A stretch of 64,000 nucleotides of DNA, from sequence record PQ478073.1; one strand, given 5' to 3'. How positions within the stretch are numbered: position 1 is the first letter of the stretch; each line of letters starts with the position of its first letter. The stretch comes from a phage. The position numbers and the translations under genes were made by a program. This document shows, in pieces, positions 4,836 through 49,140 of the stretch. The notes beneath the pieces are model-generated. The model made no database searches, had not been told where the DNA came from, and saw only the letters and a list, made by a program, of their open reading frames with translations.

Positions 4836-10093
<5,258 letters not shown>

Positions 10094-12460: not shown

Positions 12461-12921
12461 TGAAACCTTGGCATTGGATTATCAAAGATGATAAATCTAA
12501 AATTATTGAAATGATTGAGTTCTTTAACAAAGAAGTTGAAGAAGCTCGTCGTGAAGTAAAGAAGATTGGCATCATTGAAAAAATTGCTCAAGAGATTCCT
12601 GGCTGGCATGAGATGCGTCTAAGCCAGCTTCAAGAACTTGAAGCAGTATTGGAAATGTTAGAAATTGAAATGCGTCAGGTACAAGCCGAGAAGTTCAAAT
12701 ACTTTCTCGAAGGATACCGCCGTGCACTATCTTCATCTGACTGTAAAAAGTATGTTGAAGGTGATAAAGATGTTTGTGAGTTAGCAGAACTTATAAACGA
12801 GGTATCTTATATAAGAAATACATATTCAAGTATTGTTAAATCCTTAGAGATGAAAGCTTTTCAGTTAAACAATATTGTGAGACTACGTGCCGCTGGTATT
12901 GAGGATGCACGTTTAGAATAA
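12460..12921 (+). CDS. uvsY: UvsY recombination mediator
   Basis: Directly downstream of uvsX with TAATG overlap; DKDVCEL ... KAFQLNNIVRLRAAG resembles T4 UvsY C-terminus (recalled). Confidence 0.65.
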   Translation: MKPWHWIIKDDKSKIIEMIEFFNKEVEEARREVKKIGIIEKIAQEIPGWHEMRLSQLQELEAVLEMLEIEMRQVQAEKFKYFLEGYRRALSSSDCKKYVEGDKDVCELAELINEVSYIRNTYSSIVKSLEMKAFQLNNIVRLRAAGIEDARLE

Positions 12922-12968: not shown

Positions 12969-13787
12969 ATGACAAAATTAAATGAGTTTTTATCAAATGT
13001 AGCAGTTCTAGATACTGAAACTACTGGGGTTGAGAGTGAAGATGATATTATTGAATTTAGTATCTCGTATCCACATACTTCACATGAAAACATTGATACT
13101 ATTGATAACTATACATTGAGATACAAACCCTTGAAAGATATTCCACCAGAGGCATCTGCTGTGCACTTTATCAGTACTGAGGATGTAGCTAATTGTGTTG
13201 GGTATAAAGATGATTTAGATAACATTGATGCACTTATGGGATGCCGTAAGTATTTTGTTGGTCATAATGTACAATTTGACCGTAGAATGATGGTAGATAA
13301 CGAATATAAATATCGTAACTCAATTTCACAGTACTTACTTGATGAAAATAAATGGATTTGTACCCTTCGTCTTGCTAAGAAAATGTTCGCAGAAGATATT
13401 GAATTTAAAAACTTAACTCTAAGTTATTTGTGGTATAAGTTTGGATGTTATCGTGATGTTCATCGACCTGTTAATGCACACGCAGCAAAAGACGATGTGT
13501 TTATGTGTTATCAGGTTCTAATCAAATTAGTTGAAATTGCAATCGAACGTGGACATATCGAACCTAATGGTGATATTGGTGAGCAAATTGTAACTTTCTG
13601 CAACACACCAATGCGTTATCAATTCATGCCATTTGGTAAACACAAAGGTGTGCCAATGAGTACAGTTCCATTGAATTACATTGAATGGATGATTACTAAT
13701 AGTGACATTTTAGATGCAAGTAACCCTAACTGTGATAAAGATTTAGTATATACATTTGAGTACGAATATAATACTCGAACTAATTAA
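12969..13787 (+). CDS. DEDD-family (DnaQ-like) 3'-5' exonuclease
   Basis: Exo I LDTETTG, Exo II GHNVQFD, Exo III H..D motifs. Confidence 0.7.
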   Translation: MTKLNEFLSNVAVLDTETTGVESEDDIIEFSISYPHTSHENIDTIDNYTLRYKPLKDIPPEASAVHFISTEDVANCVGYKDDLDNIDALMGCRKYFVGHNVQFDRRMMVDNEYKYRNSISQYLLDENKWICTLRLAKKMFAEDIEFKNLTLSYLWYKFGCYRDVHRPVNAHAAKDDVFMCYQVLIKLVEIAIERGHIEPNGDIGEQIVTFCNTPMRYQFMPFGKHKGVPMSTVPLNYIEWMITNSDILDASNPNCDKDLVYTFEYEYNTRTN

Positions 13788-13802: not shown

Positions 13803-15287
13803 ATGAAAACTTGTAAGTTAACCTTATTGGATGAGGTGAATTGTAAATTTGAGGGACTTGATCCCTCAATTAGACAAAAGATGATTCGTGCAACTGAATA
13901 TGTGTTACCATATGCAAAGTTCACACCAGCAGGACGTATTGGACGTTGGGATGGTAAAGTTCAGTTTATGAATTTAGGCGGGACAACTTATTATCATATG
14001 TTAGATAAGTTATTGCCTATTCTTGATGAAGCTAAGATTGACATTGAATTAGTAGATCATAGGGTAGATTATGGATTTAAATTTGACCCCATTGATGAAG
14101 ATATTTTTAGTGATGTTGTATTCGGTGCAGGACACCACATGGAAGGTAAATCCATAAAACTACGTGAACATCAAGTTAATGCGGTTAATGCATGTTTGGC
14201 TAATCCACACGGACTGCTATTGGCAGCGACTGGTGCAGGTAAAACTCTCATTACTGCTGCATTGTCAAAGAAAGTGCAAGAGTATGGACGTTCTGTTATA
14301 ATAGTACCAAGTACTGACTTAGTACAACAAACATATGATGACTACATTATGTGTGGGTTGGATACTGGCATGTTCTATGGTTCACAAAAAGATTTTGGTC
14401 ACCAACATACTATTACGACTTGGCAATCATTTAACTCTCTATGGAAGAAAACCAAGAAAGGTGAAATTGAATTAACTGAACAAGACGTGAATGATTTTAT
14501 CGATGGAGTAGTTTGTGTTATCGTTGATGAGTGTCAAGGTGCAGGCGGTGACGCATTAGTTCAAGTACTTTCTAAAGTTATGAATAACGTACCATTACGT
14601 TGGGGTCTTACTGGAACAATTCCTAAAGATCCGGTAGTTGCCGCGAAAATCAAATGTAATGTTGGTGATGTTATATTTAAAATAACTGCAAAGGAATTAC
14701 AAGATAAACAAATACTAAGTACATGTAATGTGAATTGCATCAAACTAAAAAGTAGTATGAAGTTTGCATCATATGCTGAAGAGTTGAAATACTTAGTAAC
14801 TGACAGAGATAGGATGGCATATGTAGCGTCATTGATATCTGCGTTATCTGAATCAGGAAACACTTTAGTTTTAGTAGATAGACTTGAAGCAGGTGAGTTG
14901 CTATGTGAATTTTTAGGCATTCCCAAATCAGAATTCGTTCGTGGAGAAACTAAAAAGAAAGATCGAGAATCATCTTATGGTGAAATTCGTTGGGCTGATA
15001 ATAAAATACTTATTGCGACATACGGCGTTGCCAGTACTGGTATTAGTATTTCAAGGTTATATAATGTAGTATTGATTGAGCCAGGAAAAAGTTTTGTAAG
15101 AACTATACAGTCAATTGGACGTGGATTACGCCGAGCAGAAGATAAAGACCACGTAGAAATATATGATATTAGTGGTTCTAATAAGTATAGTGCTAAGCAT
15201 TTACGAGAACGTTTAGCTTACTATAAGGAAGCACAATATCCTCATAGTATAATAGATGTTAAAGATTGGGAAAACACAGCGGGATAA
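13803..15287 (+). CDS. uvsW: UvsW-like SF2 DNA helicase
   Basis: Walker A ATGAGKT, DECQ box, helicase C-terminal motifs; position after uvsX/uvsY. Confidence 0.8.
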   Translation: MKTCKLTLLDEVNCKFEGLDPSIRQKMIRATEYVLPYAKFTPAGRIGRWDGKVQFMNLGGTTYYHMLDKLLPILDEAKIDIELVDHRVDYGFKFDPIDEDIFSDVVFGAGHHMEGKSIKLREHQVNAVNACLANPHGLLLAATGAGKTLITAALSKKVQEYGRSVIIVPSTDLVQQTYDDYIMCGLDTGMFYGSQKDFGHQHTITTWQSFNSLWKKTKKGEIELTEQDVNDFIDGVVCVIVDECQGAGGDALVQVLSKVMNNVPLRWGLTGTIPKDPVVAAKIKCNVGDVIFKITAKELQDKQILSTCNVNCIKLKSSMKFASYAEELKYLVTDRDRMAYVASLISALSESGNTLVLVDRLEAGELLCEFLGIPKSEFVRGETKKKDRESSYGEIRWADNKILIATYGVASTGISISRLYNVVLIEPGKSFVRTIQSIGRGLRRAEDKDHVEIYDISGSNKYSAKHLRERLAYYKEAQYPHSIIDVKDWENTAG

Positions 15288-17819: not shown

Positions 17820-18145
17820 ATGGAAAAAGTATATATAATAAAATACCAGAAGGGTATGTACCTGTACCTAAAGAACAAAAATCAAAACAAATATCTCTAC
17901 TTAGACAAGGATCTATTACTGAAATAACTTTAGATGGTAAAACATTTCAAGTTCATGATCCTGCTCGTATTGAAAAAATTATTTCTTTGGTAGAAAGACA
18001 CGAAGAACGCTTTTTCAGTTTAAGTCAAGAATTGGCAAAGACAAAACAAAATTGTAGATTATTAGAGAATCAAATATCAACTTTGACTAATACAGTTAAA
18101 CAGTTACAGGAGCAAATAAAAAATGCAGGATTCGACCGATTCTAA
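17816..18145 (+). CDS. hypothetical coiled-coil protein (109 aa)
   Basis: ATGA overlap with upstream gene; GAGGCAGGA RBS. Confidence 0.5.
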   Translation: MNGKSIYNKIPEGYVPVPKEQKSKQISLLRQGSITEITLDGKTFQVHDPARIEKIISLVERHEERFFSLSQELAKTKQNCRLLENQISTLTNTVKQLQEQIKNAGFDRF

Positions 18146-18761
18146 ACATTATAGAAAAGCCCGAACTGATATTGACATTGACTTCAAGGATAGTAAAAGC
18201 GTAATCGCTAAACTTCCATGTGTGCGAAGTACTGAAAAAATTACGGAGGATGGTTTAATCCCCCATAATAGTGGTGTTCATTTTGATAATATACCTATTG
18301 ATCCAATCACTGGATTGGCAAGTATACAATATAAAGAAGCTGAAAGGTTAGGGTATCAAAAAGTTGATATTCTTTCACAGTCAGCTTACATGTATGTTCG
18401 TGATAGAGAGCATTTAAAAGAACTAATGAATCAGGAACCAAATTGGGATCTATTGTTAGAACCCGAAATTGTAGAACATCTATCGCAAATTAAAAAACAT
18501 GTAACTTTATTAAATGTATGGAAGCCTAAATCTATAGACGAACTAGCAATGTTTATTGCAATGATTCGCCCAGGAAAAAGGCAGTGCCAAAGTATGAACA
18601 CATGGGACGAAGTTAAAGCTACCATATGGGATTATAGTACTATAGGCACTGACCAAGCAGGAAATAAATTACGATATTTCAAAAAGCCACATGCTTACGC
18701 ATATAGCTTAATGATTGTTGTACAACTAAATGCTTTAGTTGAACATCTTACTTCTTCTTAA
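18123..18761 (+). CDS. DnaE-like (C-family polymerase palm) protein, C-terminal module of a split mini-DnaE
   Basis: TDIDIDF (DnaE PDFDVDF), HNSGVHF (HAGGVVI), AMIRPG (ALFRPGP), FKKPHAYAYSLM (FNKSHSAAYALV); motifs recalled, not searched. Confidence 0.5.
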   Translation: MQDSTDSKHYRKARTDIDIDFKDSKSVIAKLPCVRSTEKITEDGLIPHNSGVHFDNIPIDPITGLASIQYKEAERLGYQKVDILSQSAYMYVRDREHLKELMNQEPNWDLLLEPEIVEHLSQIKKHVTLLNVWKPKSIDELAMFIAMIRPGKRQCQSMNTWDEVKATIWDYSTIGTDQAGNKLRYFKKPHAYAYSLMIVVQLNALVEHLTSS

Positions 18762-19158: not shown

Positions 19159-20136
19159 ATGGCTCATCACGGCGTGTTTATGTACCCTTATAATCAGGAA
19201 GTATCATTGGGCAATTTTAATATGCCATATAGCAATGAAAAACTAACTATATATAGAGGGGCAAATAATAATTTATCTTTTACTGTTCACAACGCTGATG
19301 GAAAATATACTTTATTGAAAGATAATGAATATCTTACATTTATGATTTTTGATGCAAGAAATAATACTAAACTATTTGATGTTGTATTAGAAAAACAAGA
19401 ACCCAGTTGGTTATCAGAAAGTGGACAAGCAAGACAAACATTAGGAAATAAAAAGAAAGTATATTATGGATGTATTGTTCCAGCAGGAGTTATTCAAGAT
19501 ACCAGTCCTGGTTCAAAATATAGATGGAGCATTACTAAAGTAACAATGGATGGTTCACTTATAGAACCAACACAATATCTATACACAGGGATGAACTTTG
19601 AGGCATCAGCAGAGCTAATAATTTCAGACCAAGCAGCACCTGTATTTGTCCCCAGTACTGAAATATCAGTTAATAAAAATCCAGCATGGACAACTATAAA
19701 GCGTTTATATCATGAACCAATTGGAAATGGTATGATTGGTGAATATGATATTCTCGCATCAACTCCACTACCAGCACAAATGCAGTTTGGATTAGTAGAT
19801 GGATTAAGTAGTATTGCAATCTATTTTGATAAATTTATTGGTAGAATACAGCTACAAGGGTGCTTGTGTAACAACGTACCTAATGATAATGAAAACTATA
19901 AATGGTTTATTATTAAATTAGATGGAAAGGATTATATTGAAAATGGAATTGATTCAGAAGGTTTTCCAAAAGAACTTGACGGAATACAAGCATTTAATTT
20001 TAAAGGAAATTATATGTGGTTACGTTTGGTGGTTGCTATTCATCCCAAAATTGTTCCAGTACCATATGACTATGCTGCTGTCCGAAAAGTGTATGACCCT
20101 TTCCTAACAGTACCTAAAATTTTGATACGTAGATGA
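19159..20136 (+). CDS. hypothetical protein (325 aa), possibly late/structural
   Basis: GGAAGGA RBS before ATG 19159; track ORF starts at upstream TTG. Confidence 0.5.
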   Translation: MAHHGVFMYPYNQEVSLGNFNMPYSNEKLTIYRGANNNLSFTVHNADGKYTLLKDNEYLTFMIFDARNNTKLFDVVLEKQEPSWLSESGQARQTLGNKKKVYYGCIVPAGVIQDTSPGSKYRWSITKVTMDGSLIEPTQYLYTGMNFEASAELIISDQAAPVFVPSTEISVNKNPAWTTIKRLYHEPIGNGMIGEYDILASTPLPAQMQFGLVDGLSSIAIYFDKFIGRIQLQGCLCNNVPNDNENYKWFIIKLDGKDYIENGIDSEGFPKELDGIQAFNFKGNYMWLRLVVAIHPKIVPVPYDYAAVRKVYDPFLTVPKILIRR

Positions 20137-20153
20137 GACAAAACTAGAAGGTG

Positions 20154-20162
20154 TGCTATAAT
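20154..20162 (+). promoter_or_regulatory. extended -10 promoter TGcTATAAT
   Basis: TGTGCTATAAT family, 30 nt upstream of primase ATG. Confidence 0.5.
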
Positions 20163-20191
20163 CATTTGTAAGAAAAGACAAGGATTAACTT

Positions 20192-21247
20192 ATGAACGCT
20201 GTACAAAACATAATGGCACAAATTATGAATGATCCAGTACCTGCGATTGGTACATGGTCACAACACAACTGTCCAGCTTGTGTGTTCAGAGGACATTCAA
20301 GGCCGGATACAAAGCACCGTGGTAATCATATGTTCAATGCAGATGGTTCCGTTTCATATAACTGCTTTAACTGTAGTTTAAAAACTGGTTGGCAACCAGG
20401 AAAATATATGAGCAAAGATATGGAGTCTTTGCTCATTTCTTTTGGTGCACAAGATAAAGAAATAGAATTAGTTAAGTTTTATATTAAAGAAATGGTTGAC
20501 AGCGGTGATTTTGCTGCACAAGAAACTGTTGCATCAAAATTGTATGACCGAGTAACAGTACGTGATTTGCCATCAAATGCAAAAACATTTTGGGAATGGG
20601 CTTCTTTACCTGAAGATAAAATTCCACAAGAATTTATAAGTGTTTTGCATAATGTCAATGAAAGAAACCCATATCTGTTAGACTTAGAATTATATTGGTC
20701 ACCTAATAAAGAACATAAAATGTATGACAGATTTATTATTCCATATTTCATGAATGGTAAAATTATTGGTTATACTGCACGACATAAATTAAAAGATCCT
20801 GGAAGTACATACAGGTTCATAAATCAAGTAAGTACTAATATACTATATAACTATGATTTATTAAAAGATGAACGAATAAAAACAATTTTAGTATGTGAGG
20901 GTCCGTTAGACGCAGCATTAATGGGTGGTGTATCTGCTAATAACTTTAAATTATCAAACGTACAGATTGATGTATTAAAAGATGCACAGCAAAAAGGTAA
21001 AAAAATAGTTATTGTTCCAGATAGAGATAAAGATGGATTAATAACTATAGACCAAGCACTTGAAAATGGATTCAGTGTTTCCTTCCCAGACTTTGGTGCT
21101 GTAAGAGAAGGTAGTACAATACGTCATATCAAAGACTTTGAAGAAGCTTGTGCACGATTTGGTAGGTTATTTTGTTTACAATTAATACATGATAGTATAG
21201 TAGATGAGCCATTTTATATTAAAGCTCAAACGGATAAATGGATGTAA
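20192..21247 (+). CDS. 61: DNA primase (T4 gp61-like; zinc-binding plus TOPRIM)
   Basis: CPAC...CFNC zinc ribbon; TOPRIM VCEGPLD; AAGGA RBS. Confidence 0.85.
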   Translation: MNAVQNIMAQIMNDPVPAIGTWSQHNCPACVFRGHSRPDTKHRGNHMFNADGSVSYNCFNCSLKTGWQPGKYMSKDMESLLISFGAQDKEIELVKFYIKEMVDSGDFAAQETVASKLYDRVTVRDLPSNAKTFWEWASLPEDKIPQEFISVLHNVNERNPYLLDLELYWSPNKEHKMYDRFIIPYFMNGKIIGYTARHKLKDPGSTYRFINQVSTNILYNYDLLKDERIKTILVCEGPLDAALMGGVSANNFKLSNVQIDVLKDAQQKGKKIVIVPDRDKDGLITIDQALENGFSVSFPDFGAVREGSTIRHIKDFEEACARFGRLFCLQLIHDSIVDEPFYIKAQTDKWM

Positions 21248-21269
21248 TACATATAATGAGGGAACATAG

Positions 21270-22790
21270 ATGATTCAAAGCACAGTGGATGTGAAACAAT
21301 ATGGGATTAATGCACAACAATACTTATTATCTCAGATTTTCAGTAATCCTGATTTATATGTACGTTGTAAAAATATCCTTAAACCAGAATATTTTGATAA
21401 AACATTTCATGAAAGTATTCAATACGTGCATGATTATGCTGCAAAATATAGTTCATCACCTACTTTGAAAGATATTGAAGTTAAAGGTGGTTATCAATAC
21501 GATCAATATGAAGTTCAAGAATTACATAAACAATCAGTACTTGATACCTGTGGTGAATTTTGTCGCCATAAAGCATTAGCTTTAGCCGTTGAAAAAGGAA
21601 TGGAACTTGTCCATCAGAAAAAATATGGTGGAATCGAAGAACTAATCCGAGAAGCAATGTTGGTAACGGTACAGAATGAGTTAGGTTTGGATATTTTTGA
21701 AAACCCTGAAGATACAATCCGCTCACTCAGTACAATGCAAGGATCATTTAAGAGTGGTTGGGAAACTCTTGATTACAAACTTTTCGGTGGATTTGGGCGT
21801 AGAGAGTTAGAGATCTTTGCTGCTGCATCAGGTGGTGGTAAATCAGTAGTACTGCAAAATTTAGCAGTTAACTTTGCGAAAGCTGGAATGAATGGTGCAT
21901 ACATTTCACTTGAACTAGCTGAAGAGTTGGTTGCTGTTCGTATCTATGGTATGATGACTGAATCAAAACTCAGTAACGTAAAAAATGAAGCTGAAAAGAT
22001 TGGATTTGCTGTTAAAGTTGAAGGTAAAAACAGTGGTATGTTGCGTATTAAACGCTTACCTGAATCTGTAACAACCACAGACGATATTGAAAGTTATCTA
22101 CGTGAATTACAAATTAAGATGGAAATCAAACTTGATTATGTATGCGTGGACTATTTGGATCTATTAACTTCTAATCGTCTTGGACCAAATGATAAATCCA
22201 ATACATTTACTAAAGATAAATTTGTATCAGAAGAATTACGTGCTCTTGCATCCAAAATGGATTTGACTGTTTTCACTGCATCTCAGTTTAACCGTAGTGG
22301 TATGGACGAAGATAAGAAAAGTCAAAGTCAGATTGCTGGTGGTATTTCAAAAATTTATACTGCTGATAACGTAATTTATATTGAAGCAAAAAAAGAAACT
22401 GGCGAACTATGGTTTGATTTCCAAAAAACACGTAACAGTAGTGCAGTAGGTTCCCGTTTGCGTATGTCTTATGATATTGATTCATTGAGAGTTCTTGACC
22501 ATGCAACTACAGTACAACAAATGGAAACCGAAGGTAATGGATTCCGTCACAGCGGTGTTTCTAAGATTGGTGGAGGGAACATGGCGTTACCACCCAGCAC
22601 TATGCAAACATTACGTCATTCGCTTTCTGGTGCAGCTAAATCACCATCTGTGCAACCTGACAATACAGTAACACTAAATACTGATAGTGCTCCTAACTCT
22701 ACGACACAAAACGAAATACAGAATCCACAGACACATGCTGGTACTGATCGTGTTCATGCAATGAAGCAATGGTTAAATCAAAGGAAATGA
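21270..22790 (+). CDS. 41: replicative DNA helicase (DnaB family, T4 gp41-like)
   Basis: Walker A SGGGKS, DnaB-like C-terminal domain; disordered C-terminal extension. Confidence 0.9.
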   Translation: MIQSTVDVKQYGINAQQYLLSQIFSNPDLYVRCKNILKPEYFDKTFHESIQYVHDYAAKYSSSPTLKDIEVKGGYQYDQYEVQELHKQSVLDTCGEFCRHKALALAVEKGMELVHQKKYGGIEELIREAMLVTVQNELGLDIFENPEDTIRSLSTMQGSFKSGWETLDYKLFGGFGRRELEIFAAASGGGKSVVLQNLAVNFAKAGMNGAYISLELAEELVAVRIYGMMTESKLSNVKNEAEKIGFAVKVEGKNSGMLRIKRLPESVTTTDDIESYLRELQIKMEIKLDYVCVDYLDLLTSNRLGPNDKSNTFTKDKFVSEELRALASKMDLTVFTASQFNRSGMDEDKKSQSQIAGGISKIYTADNVIYIEAKKETGELWFDFQKTRNSSAVGSRLRMSYDIDSLRVLDHATTVQQMETEGNGFRHSGVSKIGGGNMALPPSTMQTLRHSLSGAAKSPSVQPDNTVTLNTDSAPNSTTQNEIQNPQTHAGTDRVHAMKQWLNQRK

Positions 22791-22793
22791 TAA

Positions 22794-23066
22794 ATGTCTA
22801 GTAAATCCAATAAAAAGAATCTACTTGATAGTATAGTTGACTATACGCCAGAGAAAGATACATTACAGAGTTTTAGTAATCGTGCCGACCACGCAATAAA
22901 CTCTGTGATTCATTTATTGGAGAGCATTGAAGATGAGTTTAACCAAACTGATGCTGAAGATTTAAAAAAACGCTTATTTCTAAGTATAAAAAACCGAGAT
23001 TATAAAAAGTTTCAAAAAGGGTTAGAGAATATAGCACTTGATGAAAAACGTAATAAAGGAAATTAA
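22794..23066 (+). CDS. hypothetical protein (90 aa)
   Basis: AAGGA RBS. Confidence 0.5.
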   Translation: MSSKSNKKNLLDSIVDYTPEKDTLQSFSNRADHAINSVIHLLESIEDEFNQTDAEDLKKRLFLSIKNRDYKKFQKGLENIALDEKRNKGN

Positions 23067-23067
23067 T

Positions 23068-23232
23068 ATGAAGAAAAAGAATATCAAAGAAAATGCATCT
23101 TCTGGAGCTACTTCAGCAGGTGCTATTGCATCAGTCAGTACTGGTTTACATTATCCATTACATCGTAGATTGCCTCCTACTAACTTCTTTGGATACAAAG
23201 TCGTAGAGAAAAAAGATAAGGACAAAGAATGA
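23068..23232 (+). CDS. small hypothetical protein (54 aa)
   Basis: AAAGGA RBS before ATG 23068; track ORF began at TTG 23038. Confidence 0.4.
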   Translation: MKKKNIKENASSGATSAGAIASVSTGLHYPLHRRLPPTNFFGYKVVEKKDKDKE

Positions 23233-23621
23233 AACCATATACATTCTACACAATTCACACTGTAGTAGATATTGGTGATGGTAAAACCCCAACAATCATA
23301 GATTCTAAGTTCACTGGTGCTATGAACTTGTCTAGGTTGTTGGAAGCTATTATGGTATATGACTATCCAATGATGGTAAGCGTTGTTAAAAATGAAGTCG
23401 ATTTATATAAAGATAATAATTCATCTTTTTATAACATGCCAATTTCTTGGGGAAAATGTACCATAAGCACATTCAAATTCGCATTACCAATGGATGTCGA
23501 ACTTCGTTTGAATGGTATACCATTGGTTCTACCAACCGAATTAAATGGAAAACGAATAACAAAATTTATCACATCTGGTGATGATATTAACATTAGCATC
23601 AGCAAACAGACCTTTTCTTAA
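23229..23621 (+). CDS. hypothetical protein (130 aa)
   Basis: ATGA overlap; AAGGA RBS. Confidence 0.5.
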   Translation: MKPYTFYTIHTVVDIGDGKTPTIIDSKFTGAMNLSRLLEAIMVYDYPMMVSVVKNEVDLYKDNNSSFYNMPISWGKCTISTFKFALPMDVELRLNGIPLVLPTELNGKRITKFITSGDDINISISKQTFS

Positions 23622-23677
23622 TTGTGATAAATATCATAAAGCAAGACAGAGGTCTTTTTATTTTATATGGAGAAATT

Positions 23678-24622
23678 ATGGATATAAACCAAACAGCAAC
23701 TGAACTTCAAAAGTTCGCAGATGCACATAATTTGAATGTTGATGTTTCTGTTATTCTTGATAATATGGATGCAGGTGATTTTATCACTTTAAATTCTGCG
23801 ATTGATAATTCTGACAATCGTGAAATATTCCAAATTTTACAAAAATACAAAGCACAGATGAGTGAATGTTATAATTATTTTAGTACTAAAAATGTTAACA
23901 AACATATTAATGAAAGTACTGAACTTCATAGTATTGTTGATTCAATGTCACTAAAGCAATTAGCAGAAGAGTATCATAAAAATTATACATATTCAGATAT
24001 AACAAAACTAACCATACAAGAATTAAAAGCAATTGTATTTGAAGATTTACAAAATCAAGCCACACAAATGCAAGCAAAACAAATTGCTAAAATGAATGTT
24101 TCTCAGGGTCAACAACAAGTCAATCCACAAACTCAAGCTAAAATGAAACAAGCTGAGTTGCAAAGAAATGCTAATAATATGAAAGTTAGTGTTCCTGGTA
24201 CACAAAGCGGGACAGATTCGGTTGAACCTGTAGTTGGTGTTGACCCAGGACAAACACCGGAGCAATCATTAGTTATTACTAAAAGTGGGACTAAGCCAAA
24301 TGAGTTGAACGTTTTTCCTTTGAGTGATGTTAATCCTATTGATAATCAAAATAATCCAATTCGTGAAGAAAAATCTCCACAAGAAATTAACAGTGAACTT
24401 ATGGCTAATTCCAGTTTAGAGCCTGATAGTAATCCTGATACACCATCACCATTGTCACATCACGCACCTGGTATGGGCGAAATGATACATGCAATTTCTG
24501 ATATTGAAAAAGAAGATGATATCTATGGTGATGAAAGTGTTATGGCAAACACATCACAATCTGATAATGATGACATGGTAGACCAAATTATCGATTTCTG
24601 TCATCGTATGCGAGGTCGTTAA
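23678..24622 (+). CDS. hypothetical protein with disordered Gln/Pro/Ser-rich C-terminal half (314 aa)
   Basis: GGAG RBS before ATG 23678; track ORF began at GTG 23624. Confidence 0.5.
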   Translation: MDINQTATELQKFADAHNLNVDVSVILDNMDAGDFITLNSAIDNSDNREIFQILQKYKAQMSECYNYFSTKNVNKHINESTELHSIVDSMSLKQLAEEYHKNYTYSDITKLTIQELKAIVFEDLQNQATQMQAKQIAKMNVSQGQQQVNPQTQAKMKQAELQRNANNMKVSVPGTQSGTDSVEPVVGVDPGQTPEQSLVITKSGTKPNELNVFPLSDVNPIDNQNNPIREEKSPQEINSELMANSSLEPDSNPDTPSPLSHHAPGMGEMIHAISDIEKEDDIYGDESVMANTSQSDNDDMVDQIIDFCHRMRGR

Positions 24623-24840
24623 TGAGAACAGTACTAAATGTGCATGGTCACAATACAATGGTTTCTAATGAAGAATATAAACTATTACAAAAGATAAAAG
24701 CACGCGGTACTGTTCCAGTTGAAAAGGTAAATGAATATTATCAGGAATTAGCTGATAAGATGGTATCACGTGGTGTTCTAAATAAAATAGAAAATGATGA
24801 CGGTACTGAATCTTACCAAACAGTTAGGAGTAGTAAATGA
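24622..24840 (+). CDS. hypothetical protein (72 aa)
   Basis: TAATG overlap; GAGGT RBS. Confidence 0.45.
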   Translation: MRTVLNVHGHNTMVSNEEYKLLQKIKARGTVPVEKVNEYYQELADKMVSRGVLNKIENDDGTESYQTVRSSK

Positions 24841-25514
24841 ATTACGAATATGATCAACAATCAGTTAATCAGATGGCTGATTTGTTAAGTGGATTGAATG
24901 ACATTGAAGCTGGTGAAACACATAACGCATCGGGAGTTCCATATAAAACTGGTGGTGATATCGGTGCTATGGCTTCTATTTTAACTTCATTAAATGAAGC
25001 AGGTATGGATTATGGGGTTGACCCAGAGCAACAACATCCACAAGTTGTTCCATACTATGCACCATACAACGAACATATGCTTGGACATCAATCAGTACAA
25101 CCTGTAGTTCAACGAACTCCAGCTAAACCAAAAACTAATTGGAGTTTAGTGGAAGAAAAAGTACAAGGTACTAAATCTACTAAAGTTTATAGCATTAAGT
25201 GTAATCATAGTTCACAAATTATTATGAATAATATTATGATGTATGAAGCAGCACTTACATTAGTTAATCTTCTCAATGAAGGAAGAATGTTGACAGATGC
25301 AAAAGTACTTGGTATAATCAGTTCGGGTCTTCAATACACGAATGTGATTAGTGAAGCATTGAAAGCAGCCCAGAAACGTCAACGCGTACTTAATGAATCG
25401 AAGTATGATGAAGCAAAAGATTTAGATATAATTATTGCAGAAAAGAAAGCTGAAGCGTATAAATTAAAAGAGCGTGTATTAAACTTTCTAAAAGGCGAAG
25501 GTTATATAAAGTAA
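24837..25514 (+). CDS. hypothetical protein (225 aa)
   Basis: AGGAG RBS; ATGA overlap. Confidence 0.5.
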   Translation: MNYEYDQQSVNQMADLLSGLNDIEAGETHNASGVPYKTGGDIGAMASILTSLNEAGMDYGVDPEQQHPQVVPYYAPYNEHMLGHQSVQPVVQRTPAKPKTNWSLVEEKVQGTKSTKVYSIKCNHSSQIIMNNIMMYEAALTLVNLLNEGRMLTDAKVLGIISSGLQYTNVISEALKAAQKRQRVLNESKYDEAKDLDIIIAEKKAEAYKLKERVLNFLKGEGYIK

Positions 25515-25546
25515 ATAAATGAGTGATATTTTATAAGGAAATACAA

Positions 25547-26179
25547 ATGTCAAAATATAAAAAACTAATGGAAGCAGCTTCTCGTGCAGAAGCTATGAAG
25601 TTTATTCAACTAAATGAATCTAATATTGAAAAAGCAGAAATTGTTCTTTCAGTAAAAGGTGAGATTGTGGATAAACTCCAACGTCAATCTGAGGTTATTA
25701 ACAACATGGGTGTTGACGTACTAGGCCCACTACTTGACCGTATTAAAGCCGAGCAAGGTCTAGATGCTGCACAAAATTTTAGTGATAATGTTCGTCATCT
25801 ACTACAACATGCAGTTACTACCTTAATGGATGTAAAAGACAAAATCAGTACTGAAACACTTAAACTAACTGGTGATATCACTGACGGTCCAGATGTTTCT
25901 GATATTGGAAGTGAAGATGTTGATATTGATATTGCAGCAGATACCCCAACTTTTGATATGGATGCAGACGCAGACTTTGAAGAAGACATTATCTCTGAGC
26001 CAGTACCAACTGAACGTGAAATGAAAGAATCTGTTAAACCAAGTAAAGTTGGTGTAAAAATGGAAAGTATTCGCGGAACTGTGGGTACTAAATACTTTAG
26101 TTCAAAAGAAGAAATGAAAACATGGCTTTCTGAGAATGAAAAGAAAGTTAAACGTGTTCTAGGATACGTTAAAAAATAA
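25547..26179 (+). CDS. acidic hypothetical protein (210 aa)
   Basis: AAGGA RBS before ATG 25547; track ORF began at GTG. Confidence 0.5.
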   Translation: MSKYKKLMEAASRAEAMKFIQLNESNIEKAEIVLSVKGEIVDKLQRQSEVINNMGVDVLGPLLDRIKAEQGLDAAQNFSDNVRHLLQHAVTTLMDVKDKISTETLKLTGDITDGPDVSDIGSEDVDIDIAADTPTFDMDADADFEEDIISEPVPTEREMKESVKPSKVGVKMESIRGTVGTKYFSSKEEMKTWLSENEKKVKRVLGYVKK

Positions 26180-26195
26180 TTAAGGACAATTCTAC

Positions 26196-26531
26196 ATGAG
26201 ATTTCGTGATCTTACTGAAGAGGCTCCTGGTAAAGATATACGCAATATGATTACTACTATTGCGTTGTCTTTAGTGTCCACGGGTCGAGAAGAAGTAAAT
26301 GTTCAATCTTTGATTTCTGAAATTAAAAAGAGAACCAACATCGATGTTCCATACAATGTAATGATGGACATTTTGAATTCCCTTCCTTTTGTACAGGATG
26401 CTAATTCTGATGTTGTAACTTTTGCAGGAAATTCAGCAGAAGGTTCAGAAGAAGTCGAGCAAGATTCTGAAGAGCAAGTTGAAGATTGGGCCACAAAAGC
26501 TGCTGTGACAGCAAATAAACAAAAAAACTGA
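26196..26531 (+). CDS. hypothetical protein (111 aa)
   Basis: AAGGA RBS. Confidence 0.5.
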   Translation: MRFRDLTEEAPGKDIRNMITTIALSLVSTGREEVNVQSLISEIKKRTNIDVPYNVMMDILNSLPFVQDANSDVVTFAGNSAEGSEEVEQDSEEQVEDWATKAAVTANKQKN

Positions 26532-26570
26532 GACAAATTAAAATATAATGCTATAATTAGGAGTACACGG

Positions 26571-27290
26571 ATGTACACACCACCAATTGTTAGCAGATAT
26601 ACATATGTTGGTTACAATAGAATTGAAGGCGGCCCAGAAGGTCGCCTTTATTCAACTCCAACAGGTAATCTGCCGTCAGTAACAACAATTCTAAGTGCGA
26701 CCTCGAATGACGAAGGTTTAAAGAAATGGAGAGAATTTGTTGGTGAAGAAAAGGCTAATGAGATTACATTAGAAGCATGTACAGTTGGTACTTTTATGCA
26801 TGAGAACTTGGAATTTAGATTGGAAGGAAAGCCAGACCATGAAGGCGGTATGCCAATTCGAGTTCTTGCACGTAGAATGGCTGACAAAATTCAGCAAGAA
26901 GCATGGCCTAGAATTAATGAAGTATGGGGACAGGAAGTCCCATTGTACTATGAAGGTTTATGGGCCGGAACAACTGATTTAGTAGGTGTTCATGATGGAA
27001 TCCCAACCATTATGGATTATAAAAATTCCCGTAAAGTTAAGAAGTGGGGACAAATTGAAAATTATCGTATGCAAATTGCAGCATATGCATTAGCCCATAA
27101 TCAAATGTTTGGTACTAATATAGAACGTGGTGTGATTTTCATCTGTGTAAGAAAAGATCCTAACAATCTACAATATCAAGAGTTTGTCATAGAAGGACAA
27201 GACTTCAAAGATGCAGTCAATATGTGGATTGAACGTGTAGAACAATACTATATTTTACGTGGAGAAATTGAATCAAATGGAGCAGCATAA
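26571..27290 (+). CDS. PD-(D/E)xK nuclease (RecB/lambda-exonuclease-like fold)
   Basis: GTTDLVGV ... IMDYKNSRK ... YRMQIAAYALA (D...D.K plus QxxxY). Confidence 0.6.
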   Translation: MYTPPIVSRYTYVGYNRIEGGPEGRLYSTPTGNLPSVTTILSATSNDEGLKKWREFVGEEKANEITLEACTVGTFMHENLEFRLEGKPDHEGGMPIRVLARRMADKIQQEAWPRINEVWGQEVPLYYEGLWAGTTDLVGVHDGIPTIMDYKNSRKVKKWGQIENYRMQIAAYALAHNQMFGTNIERGVIFICVRKDPNNLQYQEFVIEGQDFKDAVNMWIERVEQYYILRGEIESNGAA

Positions 27291-27831
27291 AAAAATGAAA
27301 CAAGATCTATATACAATTCGTGCACTAGTAAGTAAAGGTTATGATTTAGAAGAAGTAATTAAACTTAGTGAAGAAGATATTGATAAACTTGATTTATCAA
27401 ATAAGCTAATTCTAAATATCAAAGATTATAAACAACGTGGTGCTAAACCTGTTGAAGAAATTAAAGAACAAATTGCACAAGATATTAGTGTTGATGAAGT
27501 ATCACGCAATGTACCACCAGAAGTTATCCAAGAGTATGTTGTTGATAGTGAAGAACAAGTTAAAGTTTCTGAAGAAGTTGAAATTATTGCAGAAGAACTT
27601 GCTCCTGAATTGGAAGAAGATGAAGTTGTTATTGAGCGTGTTGTTTCATCTAAAGAAGATTTGGACATTATCAAAGAAGCATTACAGACCAAAGAATTTA
27701 AAAGTGTTTCCAACTATGTTAAACATTTAAAATCTTTAGTACCAGAACAAATTTTATCTTCTGTAGATAGCTCAGTTGTATCTCAACTAATTAATGAGCG
27801 TATTGCGGAAGTTAAAGAAAAAGCTAAATAA
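27277..27831 (+). CDS. acidic hypothetical protein (about 184 aa; start uncertain)
   Basis: Track ORF begins at GTG 27259; in-frame ATGs at 27277 and 27295. Confidence 0.45.
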   Translation: MEQHKKMKQDLYTIRALVSKGYDLEEVIKLSEEDIDKLDLSNKLILNIKDYKQRGAKPVEEIKEQIAQDISVDEVSRNVPPEVIQEYVVDSEEQVKVSEEVEIIAEELAPELEEDEVVIERVVSSKEDLDIIKEALQTKEFKSVSNYVKHLKSLVPEQILSSVDSSVVSQLINERIAEVKEKAK

Positions 27832-27859
27832 TCCTATAATACTATAGGAGATAGTTTTT

Positions 27860-28441
27860 ATGGCACAACAACAAATTGCTTTACAACAAGTAAGAACTGG
27901 TAAACAGAGAGATTTACCTGATGCATTAGAAAAAGGTCAGATAGGATTCAGTACTGATGTGGGTCGTGTTTTTATTGGCCTTCCATCATCATCTGACCCC
28001 GCCAGCTTAGTTGCAGGTAGAACTTGGACTACTGATCCAAATTCAGGTAAAGAAAACGTAGAAATAATTACAGAATTTTCACCGTGGAGAACGGTATCAA
28101 AAATAATTAACAGACCGTTTAAAGTTGATCTTCCACAAAATCAAGAAAGTATAGAAGTTATTCTTGAAAGTGAAAGTAGAGTATTCATCGATTATATTGC
28201 ATATGATGATACCGAAACGGTTTTGGAATCAGGAACTATTCAAATTGTAGCTGCTGGTACAAACACGATGATTGCACAGTCAAATAATACAAATAGAACT
28301 GACGCAATTATTTCTATCTCATTTGAAGATCCTGCATATGATTCAACAACTGGAAATATGCAATTTAACATAGTTAACTCGGATTATTTAAATTCAGGAT
28401 ATCATATAGAATTTGTATATCGTGGGTGGGACAAACCTTAA
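27860..28441 (+). CDS. hypothetical protein (193 aa)
   Basis: AGGAG RBS; followed by terminator. Confidence 0.55.
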   Translation: MAQQQIALQQVRTGKQRDLPDALEKGQIGFSTDVGRVFIGLPSSSDPASLVAGRTWTTDPNSGKENVEIITEFSPWRTVSKIINRPFKVDLPQNQESIEVILESESRVFIDYIAYDDTETVLESGTIQIVAAGTNTMIAQSNNTNRTDAIISISFEDPAYDSTTGNMQFNIVNSDYLNSGYHIEFVYRGWDKP

Positions 28442-28462
28442 AAGGCGTCCCGCCTTTTTCTT
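28441..28462 (+). terminator. rho-independent terminator
   Basis: AAAGGCG-tcc-CGCCTTT then TTTCTT. Confidence 0.65.
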
Positions 28463-28504
28463 CCACTAAAAAAAGAAATTTACATCAAAAAACAAGGATG
28501 ACAC

Positions 28505-30823
28505 ATGATTAACGTAACCAAGCGTAATGGAATGAAAGAGCCGTTATCATTGGATAAGATCCATCAAATTTTATTTTTCGCTGCTGAAGGTTTAAGTGGT
28601 ATTTCAGTTTCTGAAATTGAAATCCGAGCACAGCTTCAGTTTTATGAAGGTATTGAAACCAGTACTATTCATGATATTCTAATAAAAGCAGCAGCAGAAC
28701 TTATTTCTGAAGATACGCCTAACTATCAATACGTTGCTGGAAGATTATTAAACTATAGTATTCGTAAGCAAGTATATGGACAGTATGACCCAATTAAGTA
28801 TACTGCTCATCTTCAAGAAATGGTAGATACTAAAATATATGATCCTGAAATTTTGGAGAAATATACTCTTCAAGAAATAGAAGAGCTTGGGCGTTATATC
28901 AAACATAAGCGTGACGACAAATTTACTTATGTTGCTATGCGTCAGTGGGAAGGAAAGTATCTTTATAAAAACCGAGTCACTAAGAAAATTTATGAAACCC
29001 CACAAATGGCATATATGACTATTGCAGCAATCATCTTTATGGAGTATGATCGTTCTGTACGTATGTCATATGTTAAAAAGTTTTATGACGCAGTAAGTAA
29101 TTTTGACATCAGTCTTCCAACACCTATTATGGCAGGTCTACGTACTAATACACGTCAGTTTAGTTCTTGTGTAGTACTGAACGTTGGTGATAGTTTAGAT
29201 AGCATTGGTTCATCAAATCACGCTATTCTACGTTATATCTCACGCAAAGCTGGACTAGGTATTAATATGGGCCGCATTCGTGCTCTAGACTCTGAGATTC
29301 GTTCAGGTGATGCAGTACATACTGGGTTGATTCCTTTTATCGCAGCAACTGCTAAGACCGTTAAAAGCTGCTCACAGGGTGGTGTGCGTGGTGGTGCAGC
29401 AACTGTTCACTTTCCATTGTGGCATTTGGAATTTGATAACCTAGTTGTACTTAAAAATAACAAAGGTACAGAGTTTAACCGTGTACGTCAACTAGACTAT
29501 TGTTTCCAAGTAAACAAAACTTTATATCAACGTTTGGTTGATGGAAAGAATATTACATTCTTTAGTCCTAATGAAGTCCCTGGGCTATATGAAGCATTTT
29601 GTTCTGACCAAAAAGAATTTGAAAAACTATATAAAAAATACGAAGCTGACCAAAGCATCCGTAAAAAATCCGTTCCTGCTGTGGAAGTATTCAGTACTCT
29701 AATGACTGAACGTGCAGAAACTGGTCGTATCTATATTCAAAATATTGACCATGCAAACACTCACTCAACATTTATTGAATCAATTGCTCCAATCGAACAA
29801 TCCAACTTGTGTCAAGAAATCGCACTACCATCTGTGCCATTTGATGATATTAATACTGGTGAAGGTTTGATTAGCCTATGTACTTTGAGTGCAATTAACT
29901 GGGGTAACTTTGATAAACCAGAAGATATGGAAACTGCGTGTGATCTTTCTGTTCGTGCTCTTGATTCACTATTGGACTATCAAGACTACCCAGTAGTTCA
30001 TGCTGACCGAGCAACAAAAATGTATCGTCCACTAGGTGTTGGTATTATTAACTTTGCATACTTCCTTGCTAAACGTGGTTTACGTTATAATGAAGCAGCA
30101 CTAGAAACAGTTAACGAGTGGGCTGAAGCATGGTCTTACTATCTAATTAAATCTTCTGTACAGCTTGCTAAAGAGAAAGGTAAGTGTGAAGGATTTGATA
30201 ATCTAAAATATGCCAAAGGTATCCTTCCAATCGATACTTATAAATCGGACATTGATGAATTAGTAACTAAAGAACTAAAACAAGATTGGGAATCCTTACG
30301 TGCCGATATCAAAGAATATGGTATTCGTAACGCAACAACAATGGCATTAATGCCAGCAGAAACAAGTGCACAAATCAGTAACAGTACTAACGGTATTGAA
30401 AAGCCACGTTCTCTTGTAACGAAGAAACTATCTAAGGATGGTATTCTTAAACAAGTAGTTCCAGAAATCAATAAGTTGAAAAACAAATATGATTTACTAT
30501 GGGATCAGAAAGATAACATTGGTTATCTACAAATCTGTGGTGTTCTACAAAAATACATTGACCAAAGTATCAGTGTTAATACTAGTTATAACCCAATACA
30601 CTTCCCTGATGGTAAGTTGCCAATGTCAACTCTTCTAACTGAACTTATGTATGCATATAAAGTTGGTTTGAAAAATCTTTATTATCATAATACAAATGAT
30701 GGTTCAGATGAAGTAGACGTTGAAAAAGTACTGAAAGAAGCTGCCAAACCAGAATCTGGACAATTTGTATTACCATCACTTCCTGATTTGGATGAAGGTG
30801 ATTGTGATAGTTGTAAAATCTAA
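28505..30823 (+). CDS. nrdA: ribonucleotide reductase class Ia large subunit NrdA
   Basis: ATP-cone N-terminus (VTKRNG...LDKI); catalytic-site Cys/NxCxE-type blocks; C-terminal CxxC tail. Confidence 0.95.
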   Translation: MINVTKRNGMKEPLSLDKIHQILFFAAEGLSGISVSEIEIRAQLQFYEGIETSTIHDILIKAAAELISEDTPNYQYVAGRLLNYSIRKQVYGQYDPIKYTAHLQEMVDTKIYDPEILEKYTLQEIEELGRYIKHKRDDKFTYVAMRQWEGKYLYKNRVTKKIYETPQMAYMTIAAIIFMEYDRSVRMSYVKKFYDAVSNFDISLPTPIMAGLRTNTRQFSSCVVLNVGDSLDSIGSSNHAILRYISRKAGLGINMGRIRALDSEIRSGDAVHTGLIPFIAATAKTVKSCSQGGVRGGAATVHFPLWHLEFDNLVVLKNNKGTEFNRVRQLDYCFQVNKTLYQRLVDGKNITFFSPNEVPGLYEAFCSDQKEFEKLYKKYEADQSIRKKSVPAVEVFSTLMTERAETGRIYIQNIDHANTHSTFIESIAPIEQSNLCQEIALPSVPFDDINTGEGLISLCTLSAINWGNFDKPEDMETACDLSVRALDSLLDYQDYPVVHADRATKMYRPLGVGIINFAYFLAKRGLRYNEAALETVNEWAEAWSYYLIKSSVQLAKEKGKCEGFDNLKYAKGILPIDTYKSDIDELVTKELKQDWESLRADIKEYGIRNATTMALMPAETSAQISNSTNGIEKPRSLVTKKLSKDGILKQVVPEINKLKNKYDLLWDQKDNIGYLQICGVLQKYIDQSISVNTSYNPIHFPDGKLPMSTLLTELMYAYKVGLKNLYYHNTNDGSDEVDVEKVLKEAAKPESGQFVLPSLPDLDEGDCDSCKI

Positions 30824-30828
30824 TTTAA

Positions 30829-30856
30829 GATCCCGCTTCGGCGGGATTATTATTTC
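30829..30856 (+). terminator. hairpin ATCCCGC-ttcg-GCGGGAT (weak T-tract)
   Basis: 7 bp stem with tetraloop after nrdA. Confidence 0.55.
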
Positions 30857-30877
30857 AAAATATATAAAGGAATATAT

Positions 30878-32002
30878 ATGTCAGTTTTCAAAATTAACGA
30901 GAAGTCTCACCTAGAAAAAAATATGTTTTTTGATGAAAGTGTTGATATCCAACGCTTTGAAAGTAACAAATACTCTACACTTGAAAAACTAACAGAGCAA
31001 CAGAAAAGTTTCTTCTGGACTCCTGGTGAAGTTGACGTATCTAAAGATAAAATTGATTTTGCCAACCTTAATGATTCCGAGAAGCACATTTTTACCTCTA
31101 ACTTGAAACGTCAAATTCTTCTTGATTCCGTACAAGGTCGTGGTCCAAACCTAATGTTACTTCCATATGCATCTCTACCTGAACTAGAGAACTTTATAGA
31201 GACATGGGCATTCTTTGAAGGTGCGATTCATAGTAAATCATACACTCATATTATTCGTAACATTTATCCTAATCCTTCTGAAGTATTTGATACTATGTTG
31301 GACATTCCAGAAATCACTGATTGTGCTGCTGATGTTTCCAAATACTATGATGATCTTGATGTACTAGGTACTCTATACCGTGCATTAGGTGTTGGTACAC
31401 ATACAATCAATGGTGAAACAGTCGAAATTAGTTTATACGAACTAAAGAAAAAACTTTGGTTGTGCCTGAATAGTATTAACATTCTTGAAGGTGTTCGTTT
31501 TTATGCAAGCTTTGCGTGTTCTTGGGCGTTTGCTGAAAACAATCTAATGGAAGGTAATGCTAAGATTATCCGTCTAATCTGTCGTGATGAAAACCTACAC
31601 CTAGCAGCAACCCAAATGATTCTACGTCTTCTCAAAAAAGAAGATCCAGATATGGTAAAAATAGCAGAAGAGTGTTATGATGAAGTACTGGAAATGTTTA
31701 TGTCTGCTATCCGTCAAGAAGAAGCTTGGGCAGACTTCCTCTTTAAAGATGGTTCAATCATTGGACTGAATGCAGAAATTCTAAAACAATATGTTCGTTG
31801 GATTGGTTCTAAGCGTATGACTGCACTAGGAATTAAATGTCCATATACCGTATCTAAGAGTAACCCTCTACCTTGGACTGAGCATTGGGTTAGTGGTGGT
31901 TCAGTACAAGTTGCACCACAAGAAACTGAAATAAGTTCTTACATCATTGGTGGTATTGTGAATGATATCCAAGTAGATACATTCTCACCATTCAAACTAT
32001 AA
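30878..32002 (+). CDS. nrdB: ribonucleotide reductase small subunit NrdB
   Basis: Di-iron ligand helices (EGVRFYASFA...; ENLH); follows nrdA. Confidence 0.9.
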   Translation: MSVFKINEKSHLEKNMFFDESVDIQRFESNKYSTLEKLTEQQKSFFWTPGEVDVSKDKIDFANLNDSEKHIFTSNLKRQILLDSVQGRGPNLMLLPYASLPELENFIETWAFFEGAIHSKSYTHIIRNIYPNPSEVFDTMLDIPEITDCAADVSKYYDDLDVLGTLYRALGVGTHTINGETVEISLYELKKKLWLCLNSINILEGVRFYASFACSWAFAENNLMEGNAKIIRLICRDENLHLAATQMILRLLKKEDPDMVKIAEECYDEVLEMFMSAIRQEEAWADFLFKDGSIIGLNAEILKQYVRWIGSKRMTALGIKCPYTVSKSNPLPWTEHWVSGGSVQVAPQETEISSYIIGGIVNDIQVDTFSPFKL

Positions 32003-35176: not shown

Positions 35177-36479
<1,303 letters not shown>

Positions 36480-48828: not shown

Positions 48829-49140
48829 ATGTTTAATCCGTTTTTTGACCCGTCTGGAATGACGGAAAAAGAACTACAGTTAAAAATTAATGAACAGTCA
48901 ATGCGTTTAACTTCTGCTCGTGCTGCTGGCCTAAGCGACATGATTATTGGTAATATGCAAACTGTCTTAAATCAATGTTATGCTGAACTAGAACTTCGCC
49001 AAGGACAAAAAGAAAAAACTGTTTATGACGAAGAAGACCCATGTATCTTCGATATGGATTCATATCTAACTGACAACGAAGAGGCCCAGAAGAAGAAAAA
49101 TGAAAGTACAAGGAAACAGATTTATAAGTCCCAATGGTGA
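48829..49140 (+). CDS. hypothetical protein (103 aa)
   Basis: AGGAGG RBS. Confidence 0.5.
   Translation: MFNPFFDPSGMTEKELQLKINEQSMRLTSARAAGLSDMIIGNMQTVLNQCYAELELRQGQKEKTVYDEEDPCIFDMDSYLTDNEEAQKKKNESTRKQIYKSQW

Follow-up and report, generated by a model that had tools for sequence, protein, structure and literature searches.

The 64,000-nucleotide (nt) stretch of the phage sequence record PQ478073.1 analyzed here (hereinafter the window; all positions are those of the whole stretch, read 5′ to 3′) codes for a 239-amino-acid (aa) nuclease at 26571..27290 on the plus strand, which we assign to the MGME1/Ddk1 family, in the RecB-like branch of the PD-(D/E)XK nucleases. As the best overall explanation, we propose that this protein is probably an MGME1-type exonuclease that trims single-stranded DNA (ssDNA) in phage replication and recombination. 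The family assignment is solid, yet the kinship is not new, having been published in 2013 (PMC3597694), and the gene itself is an ordinary phage exonuclease that has been annotated before, across dozens of phage genomes that are identical or nearly so; hence, the nuclease carries little weight as a discovery. What is added is a firm placement in the MGME1 family, which corrects the Cas4/vCas4 labels given to the same protein in the record of phage G17 and in the paper on phage Sharanji, together with a concrete and testable prediction, namely that the enzyme trims tails and flaps of ssDNA in a system of replication and recombination of the T4 type. Being a tractable Escherichia coli phage enzyme, it could also offer a simple system for studying arch threading, the mechanism belonging to a human disease gene.

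Active site and family assignment

The gene begins with an ATG in the open reading frame (ORF) listing, and inspection of the sequence reveals a Shine-Dalgarno-like AGGAG (26559..26563, plus strand) 7 nt before it; the minus-strand ORFs within the gene are short (42–91 aa) and without any match. The product is recognized by the Pfam PDDEXK_1 model (PF12705) with 24.2 bits as compared to a gathering score of 22, over residues 99–201, with PDDEXK_1 and DUF2800 being the only families returned by the Pfam scan at E ≤ 1. A far stronger match, spanning residues 2–232, is to the family PHROG 298, termed "exonuclease" (E = 2.2e-64), and 2590 homologs are recovered at E ≤ 1e-3. We pooled homologs, relatives from 166 loci and one human MGME1 fragment into a set of 281 distinct family sequences, in which H77, E81, E122, D136, D149, K151, Q168 and Y172 are kept without exception (281/281). 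Taken together, the Pfam and PHROG 298 matches, the number of homologs and this catalytic conservation place the nuclease match far beyond chance. A second alignment of 33 sequences, spanning 45–100% identity, is invariant at Y12, R25, Y27, S36–L41, W53, H77, E81, E122, D136, D149, K151, Q168, Y172 and H176. S36 and T38 are invariant in this alignment and in a wider one, and are kept in 280 of the 281 sequences, with the remaining one gapped.

Five motifs have been defined for MGME1 (PMC6237815, PMC3597694), with His as motif Ia, Glu as I, Asp as II, Asp-x-Lys as III and Q-h-x-x-Y as IV, and all five are present in the phage nuclease. Combining a HMMER alignment with the published residue roles (PMC6237815, PMC3597694, PMC11040146), we equate T38 with Thr134, W53 with Trp152, H77 with His180, E81 with Glu184, E122 with Glu223, D136 with Asp238, D149 with Asp251, K151 with Lys253, Q168 with Gln271 and Y172 with Tyr275 of MGME1. 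On the plus strand, this mapping places a P35-SVTTIL41 motif, corresponding to P131-SVTRVL137 of MGME1, at 26673..26693, motif I (E122) at 26934..26936, and motif II (D136 of TTDLV, the counterpart of the metal ligand Asp238) at 26976..26978. Motif III (D149-Y150-K151 of IMDYK) follows at 27015..27023; it corresponds to Asp251-Trp252-Lys253, and its middle residue is aromatic or His throughout the 281 sequences. Motif IV (Q168-I-A-A-Y172, conforming to QhxxY and matching Gln271...Tyr275) lies at 27072..27086. All ten mapped residues are invariant when distant phage members, namely those of PA5oct, a 544-kb metagenomic phage, LIMEstone1, Vibrio phage K471, S-PM2 and phiN3, are aligned with human MGME1.

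Mutagenesis of MGME1 has established the importance of His180, Glu184, Glu223, Asp238, Asp251 and Lys253; the E223Q mutant is impaired and D238N strongly lowers ssDNA cleavage, while Thr134 contacts DNA and T134A is without obvious effect on ssDNA cleavage (PMC6237815). A preliminary description of this gene, made from the sequence alone, had recognized a PD-(D/E)xK nuclease with a D...D.K core followed by QxxxY, which is borne out by D136, D149-Y-K151 and Q168-IAA-Y172. It had also named poor conservation of the active-site residues in homologs as the finding that would speak against a nuclease; the 281 sequences present the opposite picture. Accordingly, judging by its intact set of active-site residues, the protein is very probably catalytically competent.

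The relationship to MGME1 in particular emerges from both sequence and structure comparisons. A profile of 33 homologs run against the PDB retrieves MGME1 at E = 2e-16 over profile positions 32–231, the sole other chain being an unrelated polysaccharide lyase (E = 0.004), and a single-sequence search of the PDB retrieves MGME1 only (E ~0.005, residues 34–226). An AlphaFold2 model with a predicted local distance difference test score of 94.8 depicts a single-domain nuclease, in line with the stand-alone enzyme envisaged in the preliminary description. In structural comparisons with this model, MGME1 ranks top by a wide margin with a score of 19.9 (190 residues, 2.5 Å), followed by RecE (14.3), the structure 3l0a (13.2), Dna2 (12.3), Cas4 (10.1–10.6) and lambda exonuclease (8.1). 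DSSP applied to the model delineates two helices, residues 48–57 and 59–84 (26712..26822, plus strand), which correspond to the helical arch of MGME1: with an offset of +103, the predicted helix 59–84 exactly matches α3 (162–187), and helix 48–57 falls within α2 (143–160). The two-helix arch fold of the MGME1 family is thus recovered in the predicted model, and W53, as well as H77 of motif Ia and E81, all of them invariant, lie within its helices.

With MGME1 (PDB 5zyt, 5zyu, 5zyv and 8xa9), the phage protein shares the same five motifs, the PSVT motif, the arch Trp, arch helices at homologous positions and an organization as a single nuclease domain without an Fe–S cluster. However, the two are only ~22% identical, and MGME1 possesses a mitochondrial targeting sequence and an N-terminal extension of ~100 residues. 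The phage protein has neither, starting ~35 residues ahead of the PSVT motif, and is a homolog rather than an ortholog of MGME1. In place of the extension, its residues 1–35 form a short N-terminal β-hairpin region with conserved residues of its own (Y12, R25 and Y27). Further, two residues that stack on DNA in MGME1, Phe173 and Phe266, lack conservation in the corresponding alignment columns, and the replicase partner would differ, with the phage DNA polymerase encoded in the window replacing Pol gamma.

Szczesny et al. (2013) had placed Ddk1/MGME1-like nucleases in one group with exonucleases from Caudovirales phages of cyanobacteria and proteobacteria (PMC3597694), and "genome maintenance exonuclease 1" is the name given to many of the homologs by the Joint Genome Institute. 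PHROG 298 spans the Ackermannviridae, T4-like cyanophages, Rak2/121Q-like and PA5oct-like jumbo phages, Emdodecavirus and Vibrio phages, and the relatives that we examined from all these lineages match it at 1e-47 to 2e-88. On these grounds, we hold membership of the phage protein in the MGME1/Ddk1 family to be almost certain.

Cas4 and Red/RecE-type exonucleases compared

The same protein has been deposited repeatedly and under discordant names. Megablast with 20000–32000 of the window finds the Escherichia phages UB and vB_EcoM_E9.1 at 99.6% nucleotide identity over 100% of the query, and 121Q, PBECO4, phAPEC6, G17, Sharanji and others at 98–99% identity, all of them jumbo coliphages of ~350 kb in the genus Asteriusvirus. 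An exact (100%) match to the nuclease occurs in at least 22 phage records, among them gp29 of 121Q, named "exonuclease" (AIT13926), WNN14593.1 of Sharanji and QBO61766.1 of G17. Other deposited names for the identical protein are "PD-(D/E)XK nuclease superfamily protein", "putative exonuclease", "hypothetical protein" and "CRISPR-associated protein Cas4".

The last of these names, carried by the G17 record, implies a viral "solo Cas4" or anti-defense nuclease that disturbs host CRISPR adaptation or degrades the nucleic acid of a defense system. The Sharanji paper of 2025 developed this idea for the identical protein, speculating that a "solo Cas4 (vCas4)" might induce CRISPR autoimmunity with a possible anti-CRISPR role (PMC11895373), and an anti-defense nuclease was likewise among the functions suggested in the preliminary description. 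Cas4 proteins (e.g., SSO0001 and type I-C Cas4) do share the RecB-like catalytic core, and weak matches to them are found with TIGR00372 (27.1 bits) and the PADLOC Cas4 profiles (E = 1e-6 to 1e-3). However, the TIGR00372 score compares with a curated cut-off of 65, and all these matches are limited to the catalytic core (residues ~122–218). The only cysteines of the protein are C70, in a column occupied mostly by A, S or T, and C192, in a column with C in 223 of 281 sequences; with just these two, neither of them conserved, there is no four-Cys Fe–S cluster of the kind found in Cas4. The Cas4 structures also score far below MGME1 in the structural ranking. No cas genes or CRISPR array are seen among the annotated neighbors, and 26000–28000 contains no tandem or direct repeat array, its repeats being just short pairs at chance level. 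Beyond the window, the family is embedded among phage replication and recombination genes and in housekeeping neighborhoods of SAR11 and SAR86 bacteria (see below). Hence, we reject the Cas4 identity on the NCBIfam and PADLOC scores, the cysteine count and the structure ranking; an anti-defense role, for which these observations lend no support, appears very improbable, and the Cas4/vCas4 labels look like over-annotation of a shared RecB-like core.

A more conventional alternative is a Red/RecE-type exonuclease, which would processively resect duplex ends in the 5′-3′ direction, leaving 3′ tails on which an annealing or strand-exchange protein could act. RecE and lambda exonuclease form toroidal oligomers; they resect duplex ends and have RecT or Beta as their partners. 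Their likeness to the phage protein lies in the PD-(D/E)XK core, with its E, D, DxK and QxxxY, and in their use by phages in recombination; moreover, PHROG exonuclease families besides 298 give weak matches to the nuclease, and the phage codes for UvsX and UvsY, which need 3′ tails. Nevertheless, MGME1 matches much better than either RecE or lambda exonuclease, and the predicted arch is the very feature that selects single strands in MGME1 (PMC11040146). No YqaJ-type Pfam match is obtained at E ≤ 1, and a PHROG search of the nine flanking ORFs detects no single-strand annealing protein (Beta/RecT/Erf/Sak), these ORFs matching "virion structural protein" or function-unknown families only. With no annealing partner beside the gene, no YqaJ match and a structural similarity lower than that to MGME1, we set the lambda-Red/RecE reading aside as improbable. 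Thus, in the preliminary assignment to a "RecB/lambda-exonuclease/Cas4-type", the RecB-like part stands, and the lambda-exonuclease/RecE and Cas4 types give way to MGME1 as the best match. Dna2, another relative in the structural ranking, has its nuclease domain fused to a helicase and carries an Fe–S cluster, whereas the phage protein is a stand-alone domain devoid of such a cluster.

Gene contexts and the proposed role

Human MGME1 assists a replicase as its accessory exonuclease, with flaps and ssDNA as substrates; it needs free ssDNA ends and acts poorly on duplex DNA (PMC11040146). By analogy, the phage enzyme is predicted to be metal-dependent and end-dependent, cutting ssDNA from either end: a free ssDNA end would thread below the arch of two long helices, and the His-Glu-Asp-Asp-Lys center, holding two metal ions, would then cleave the strand at a distance of a few nt from the junction of the single strand with the duplex. 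In this manner, tails and flaps of either polarity would be removed, with intact duplex and circular DNA being spared. We envisage the enzyme working inside the T4-like machinery of replication and recombination that the window also encodes, which comprises a DNA polymerase, a gp32-like ssDNA-binding protein, UvsX, UvsY, a UvsW-like helicase, a primase, a DnaB-type helicase, a FEN-type 5′-3′ exonuclease, RNase HI and a Dda-like helicase. Its task there might be to remove tails of ssDNA, as well as flaps that are long or non-homologous, from the intermediates of recombination-dependent replication and from lagging-strand junctions, which would thereby become ligatable. Drawing on both the biochemistry of MGME1 and the gene contexts described below, we regard tail and flap trimming as having somewhat better than even chances of being the specific role. 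The recombination exonuclease suggested in the preliminary description broadly fits these contexts, with the difference that the expected substrates are ssDNA tails and flaps rather than Red-type duplex ends.

The contexts vary by lineage within PHROG 298, taking the forms uvsY-exo-uvsW, phoH-exo-gp33-gp32 and helicase...exo...nrdAB. In the Dickeya phage LIMEstone1 (Ackermannviridae; locus L005:4435-7056) and the 157-kb Vibrio phage K471 (L010:3450-6134), the nuclease lies directly between uvsY, whose identity is confirmed by PHROG 231, and a uvsW-type helicase, with the clamp and clamp loader coming next; in LIMEstone1 the start of the nuclease gene overlaps the stop of uvsY. The cyanophage S-PM2 displays the order td-phoH-nuclease-gp33-DUF1825-gp32, placing gp32 two genes from the nuclease, and phiN3 has phoH nearby. 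A third arrangement is that of a jumbo-phage clade in which gene order is kept in PA5oct, the 544-kb metagenomic phage and 80 IMG/VR loci, with nuclease identities of 43–81% across cultured and uncultured phages. Here, the primase and DnaB are followed by a homolog of the 90-aa protein at 22794–23066 and, further on, by a homolog of the 210-aa protein at 25547–26179 that precedes the nuclease; on its 3′ side, one or two genes separate it from nrdA and nrdB, which are present in 52 and 44 of the 86 loci, respectively.

The family also extends to cellular genomes. A scan of species-representative genomes uncovered many homologs, at 37–42% identity, in single-cell genomes of SAR11 (Pelagibacteraceae) and SAR86, where they lie on long contigs; the catalytic residues are kept in every copy. 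In SAR11, the gene order is hisS-hisZ-hisG-rmuC-nuclease-exonuclease I (sbcB-like)-trxA-folC-accD, and this hisS-to-accD neighborhood is conserved in about 28–31 of 34 loci (e.g., L145:5944-6627 on a 966-kb contig of Pelagibacteraceae AG-426-E17; others fall within L108-L173, such as L130, L152 and L115). Given the conserved housekeeping neighborhood, the SAR11 copy is a chromosomal gene beside two recombination/repair genes and not a prophage gene. The SAR86 homologs (e.g., L137:5998-6687, L121 and L161) have metabolic neighbors. A role in replication and recombination is thus suggested by the module in the window and by the uvsY-uvsW, gp32 and rmuC-sbcB contexts, which come from several independent lineages.

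The third, nrdAB-linked arrangement also accommodates the main rival reading, nucleotide salvage, in which the nuclease would break down host DNA that is single-stranded or nicked, supplying mononucleotides or short oligonucleotides to the phage enzymes of nucleotide metabolism encoded just downstream. Both in the window and in the jumbo-phage clade, nrdA and nrdB lie within 1–5 kb on the 3′ side of the nuclease, with MazG and DHFR also encoded in the window, and the S-PM2 nuclease follows thymidylate synthase and PhoH, the latter being likewise near the nuclease in phiN3. Yet the linkage to nrdAB is a single inherited arrangement in one clade, and the 5′ side of the same block is occupied by the primase and replicative helicase. 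In other lineages the nuclease sits between uvsY and uvsW or rmuC and sbcB. Furthermore, with free ssDNA ends required, salvage by an MGME1-type enzyme would need another nuclease to act first. We therefore consider salvage unlikely, even as it remains the foremost competitor to ssDNA trimming.

Several observations weigh against the role in ssDNA trimming or the assignment behind it. In a pairwise comparison taken alone, the window protein resembles MGME1 weakly (E ~0.005, 22% identity). Gene order is largely inherited, such that the many syntenic loci amount to few independent observations, and the nrdA/nrdB genes as conserved 3′ neighbors in the jumbo-phage clade would be just as compatible with nucleotide salvage. 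A FEN-type exonuclease (4860–5879) and RNase HI (36051–36479) are already among the products of the phage, owing to which a role in Okazaki maturation might be partly redundant. As for a resection nuclease of the gp46/gp47 (Rad50/Mre11-like) type, which the phage may also have, none is named in the one 50-kb block of the 121Q annotation covered, which consists of hypothetical proteins, or in the Sharanji paper. Finally, the literature searched yielded no biochemical or genetic study of any phage member of the family.

A broader possibility, which we advance only tentatively, is that the phage protein is the counterpart of MGME1 in its partnership with Pol gamma, i.e., an accessory arch-threading ssDNA exonuclease operating with the phage replicase, in a family spanning T4-like and jumbo phages, the core chromosomes of SAR11 (rmuC-sbcB) and SAR86, and the mitochondria of animals. 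If so, a phylogeny could decide between the phage origin of MGME1 proposed in 2013 and an alphaproteobacterial one. The SAR11/SAR86 homologs may bear on this question, and no link between MGME1 and SAR11 was found in the literature searched. In pairwise comparisons with the human MGME1 fragment, the scores of SAR11 proteins (median 45.8 bits) differ little from that of cyanophage S-PM2 (49 bits), with the IMG/VR jumbo-phage proteins lower, at a median of 32.5 bits, and the window protein at 19.5 bits; on such scores, an affinity of MGME1 to phages cannot be told from one to SAR11.

The surrounding region and minor features

Using gene names from the E9.1 and 121Q annotations supplemented by Pfam checks, the window as a whole reads as a replication, recombination and nucleotide-metabolism region of the phage genome. 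Its first part codes for the FEN-type 5′-3′ exonuclease mentioned above, the large terminase (7069–8709), the gp32-like ssDNA-binding protein (10238–11272), UvsX (11342–12460), UvsY (12460–12921), a DnaQ/RNase T-type exonuclease (12969–13787) and a superfamily 2 (SF2) helicase (13803–15287). These are followed by the primase (20192–21247), the DnaB-type helicase (21270–22790) and a block of small proteins (22794–26531) leading up to the nuclease, beyond which lie two further small proteins (27277–28441) and nrdA and nrdB (28505–32002). From 32922 onwards come MazG, DHFR, RNase HI, the Dda-like helicase, topoisomerase II and the clamp loader. The nuclease is separate, as the preliminary description had it, from the two DEDD-type exonucleases of the window, of which that at 12969–13787 matches the Pfam RNase_T family and that at 56973–57662 a Rv2179c-like family.

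The same description had placed the nuclease among uncharacterized acidic proteins. Acidity holds for the neighbors at 23678, 25547, 26196, 27277 and 27860, with isoelectric points of 4.4–4.8, as opposed to those at 22794, 23229 and 24622 (~6.5–8) and at 23068 (9.9). "Uncharacterized" is less apt, as the 121Q and E9.1 records name most of these small neighbors virion structural proteins, a label also carried by their PHROG matches; the nuclease itself bears no virion-protein flag in 121Q or PA5oct. Two of the small "virion structural" proteins, the homologs of 22794 and 25547, are conserved alongside replication genes. The "ESI-MS/MS" (electrospray ionization tandem mass spectrometry) flag of PA5oct extends even to the ribonucleotide reductase subunits, and "structural" labels based on mass spectrometry may mark abundant proteins only.

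Promoter-like sites in 22700–28600 number 26, as compared to 28.4 expected from shuffled sequences, and with the regional count at this chance level we make no claim on transcription. Two individual sites are recorded with that limitation. One is a perfect sigma-70 consensus at 25290–25318 on the plus strand (TTGACA-17 nt-TATAAT, 12/12 matches, with an upstream TG), which sits within the ORF 24837–25514, ~230 nt on the 5′ side of the gene at 25547. The other is a TG-extended TATAAT at 26552–26557, just 5′ of the ribosome-binding site of the nuclease gene. No Rfam families are detected in 20000–32000.

Three ORFs of the window are named "DNA polymerase" in the E9.1 annotation: a 1001-aa gene cut by the window (1–750), a 212-aa ORF (18123–18761) and a 172-aa ORF (49100–49618). 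These may represent a split or multi-part polymerase, or else loose annotation. The DnaQ/RNase T-type exonuclease at 12969–13787 shows a short C-terminal match to QSregVF_b (PF12843; residues 219–242) with 25 bits as compared to a cut-off of 22. Directly 5′ of the DEDD-type exonuclease at 56973 lies a gene for a TelA-like protein of the toxic anion/tellurite resistance family (55757–56893; E = 2e-37), a pairing that is unusual for a phage replication region.

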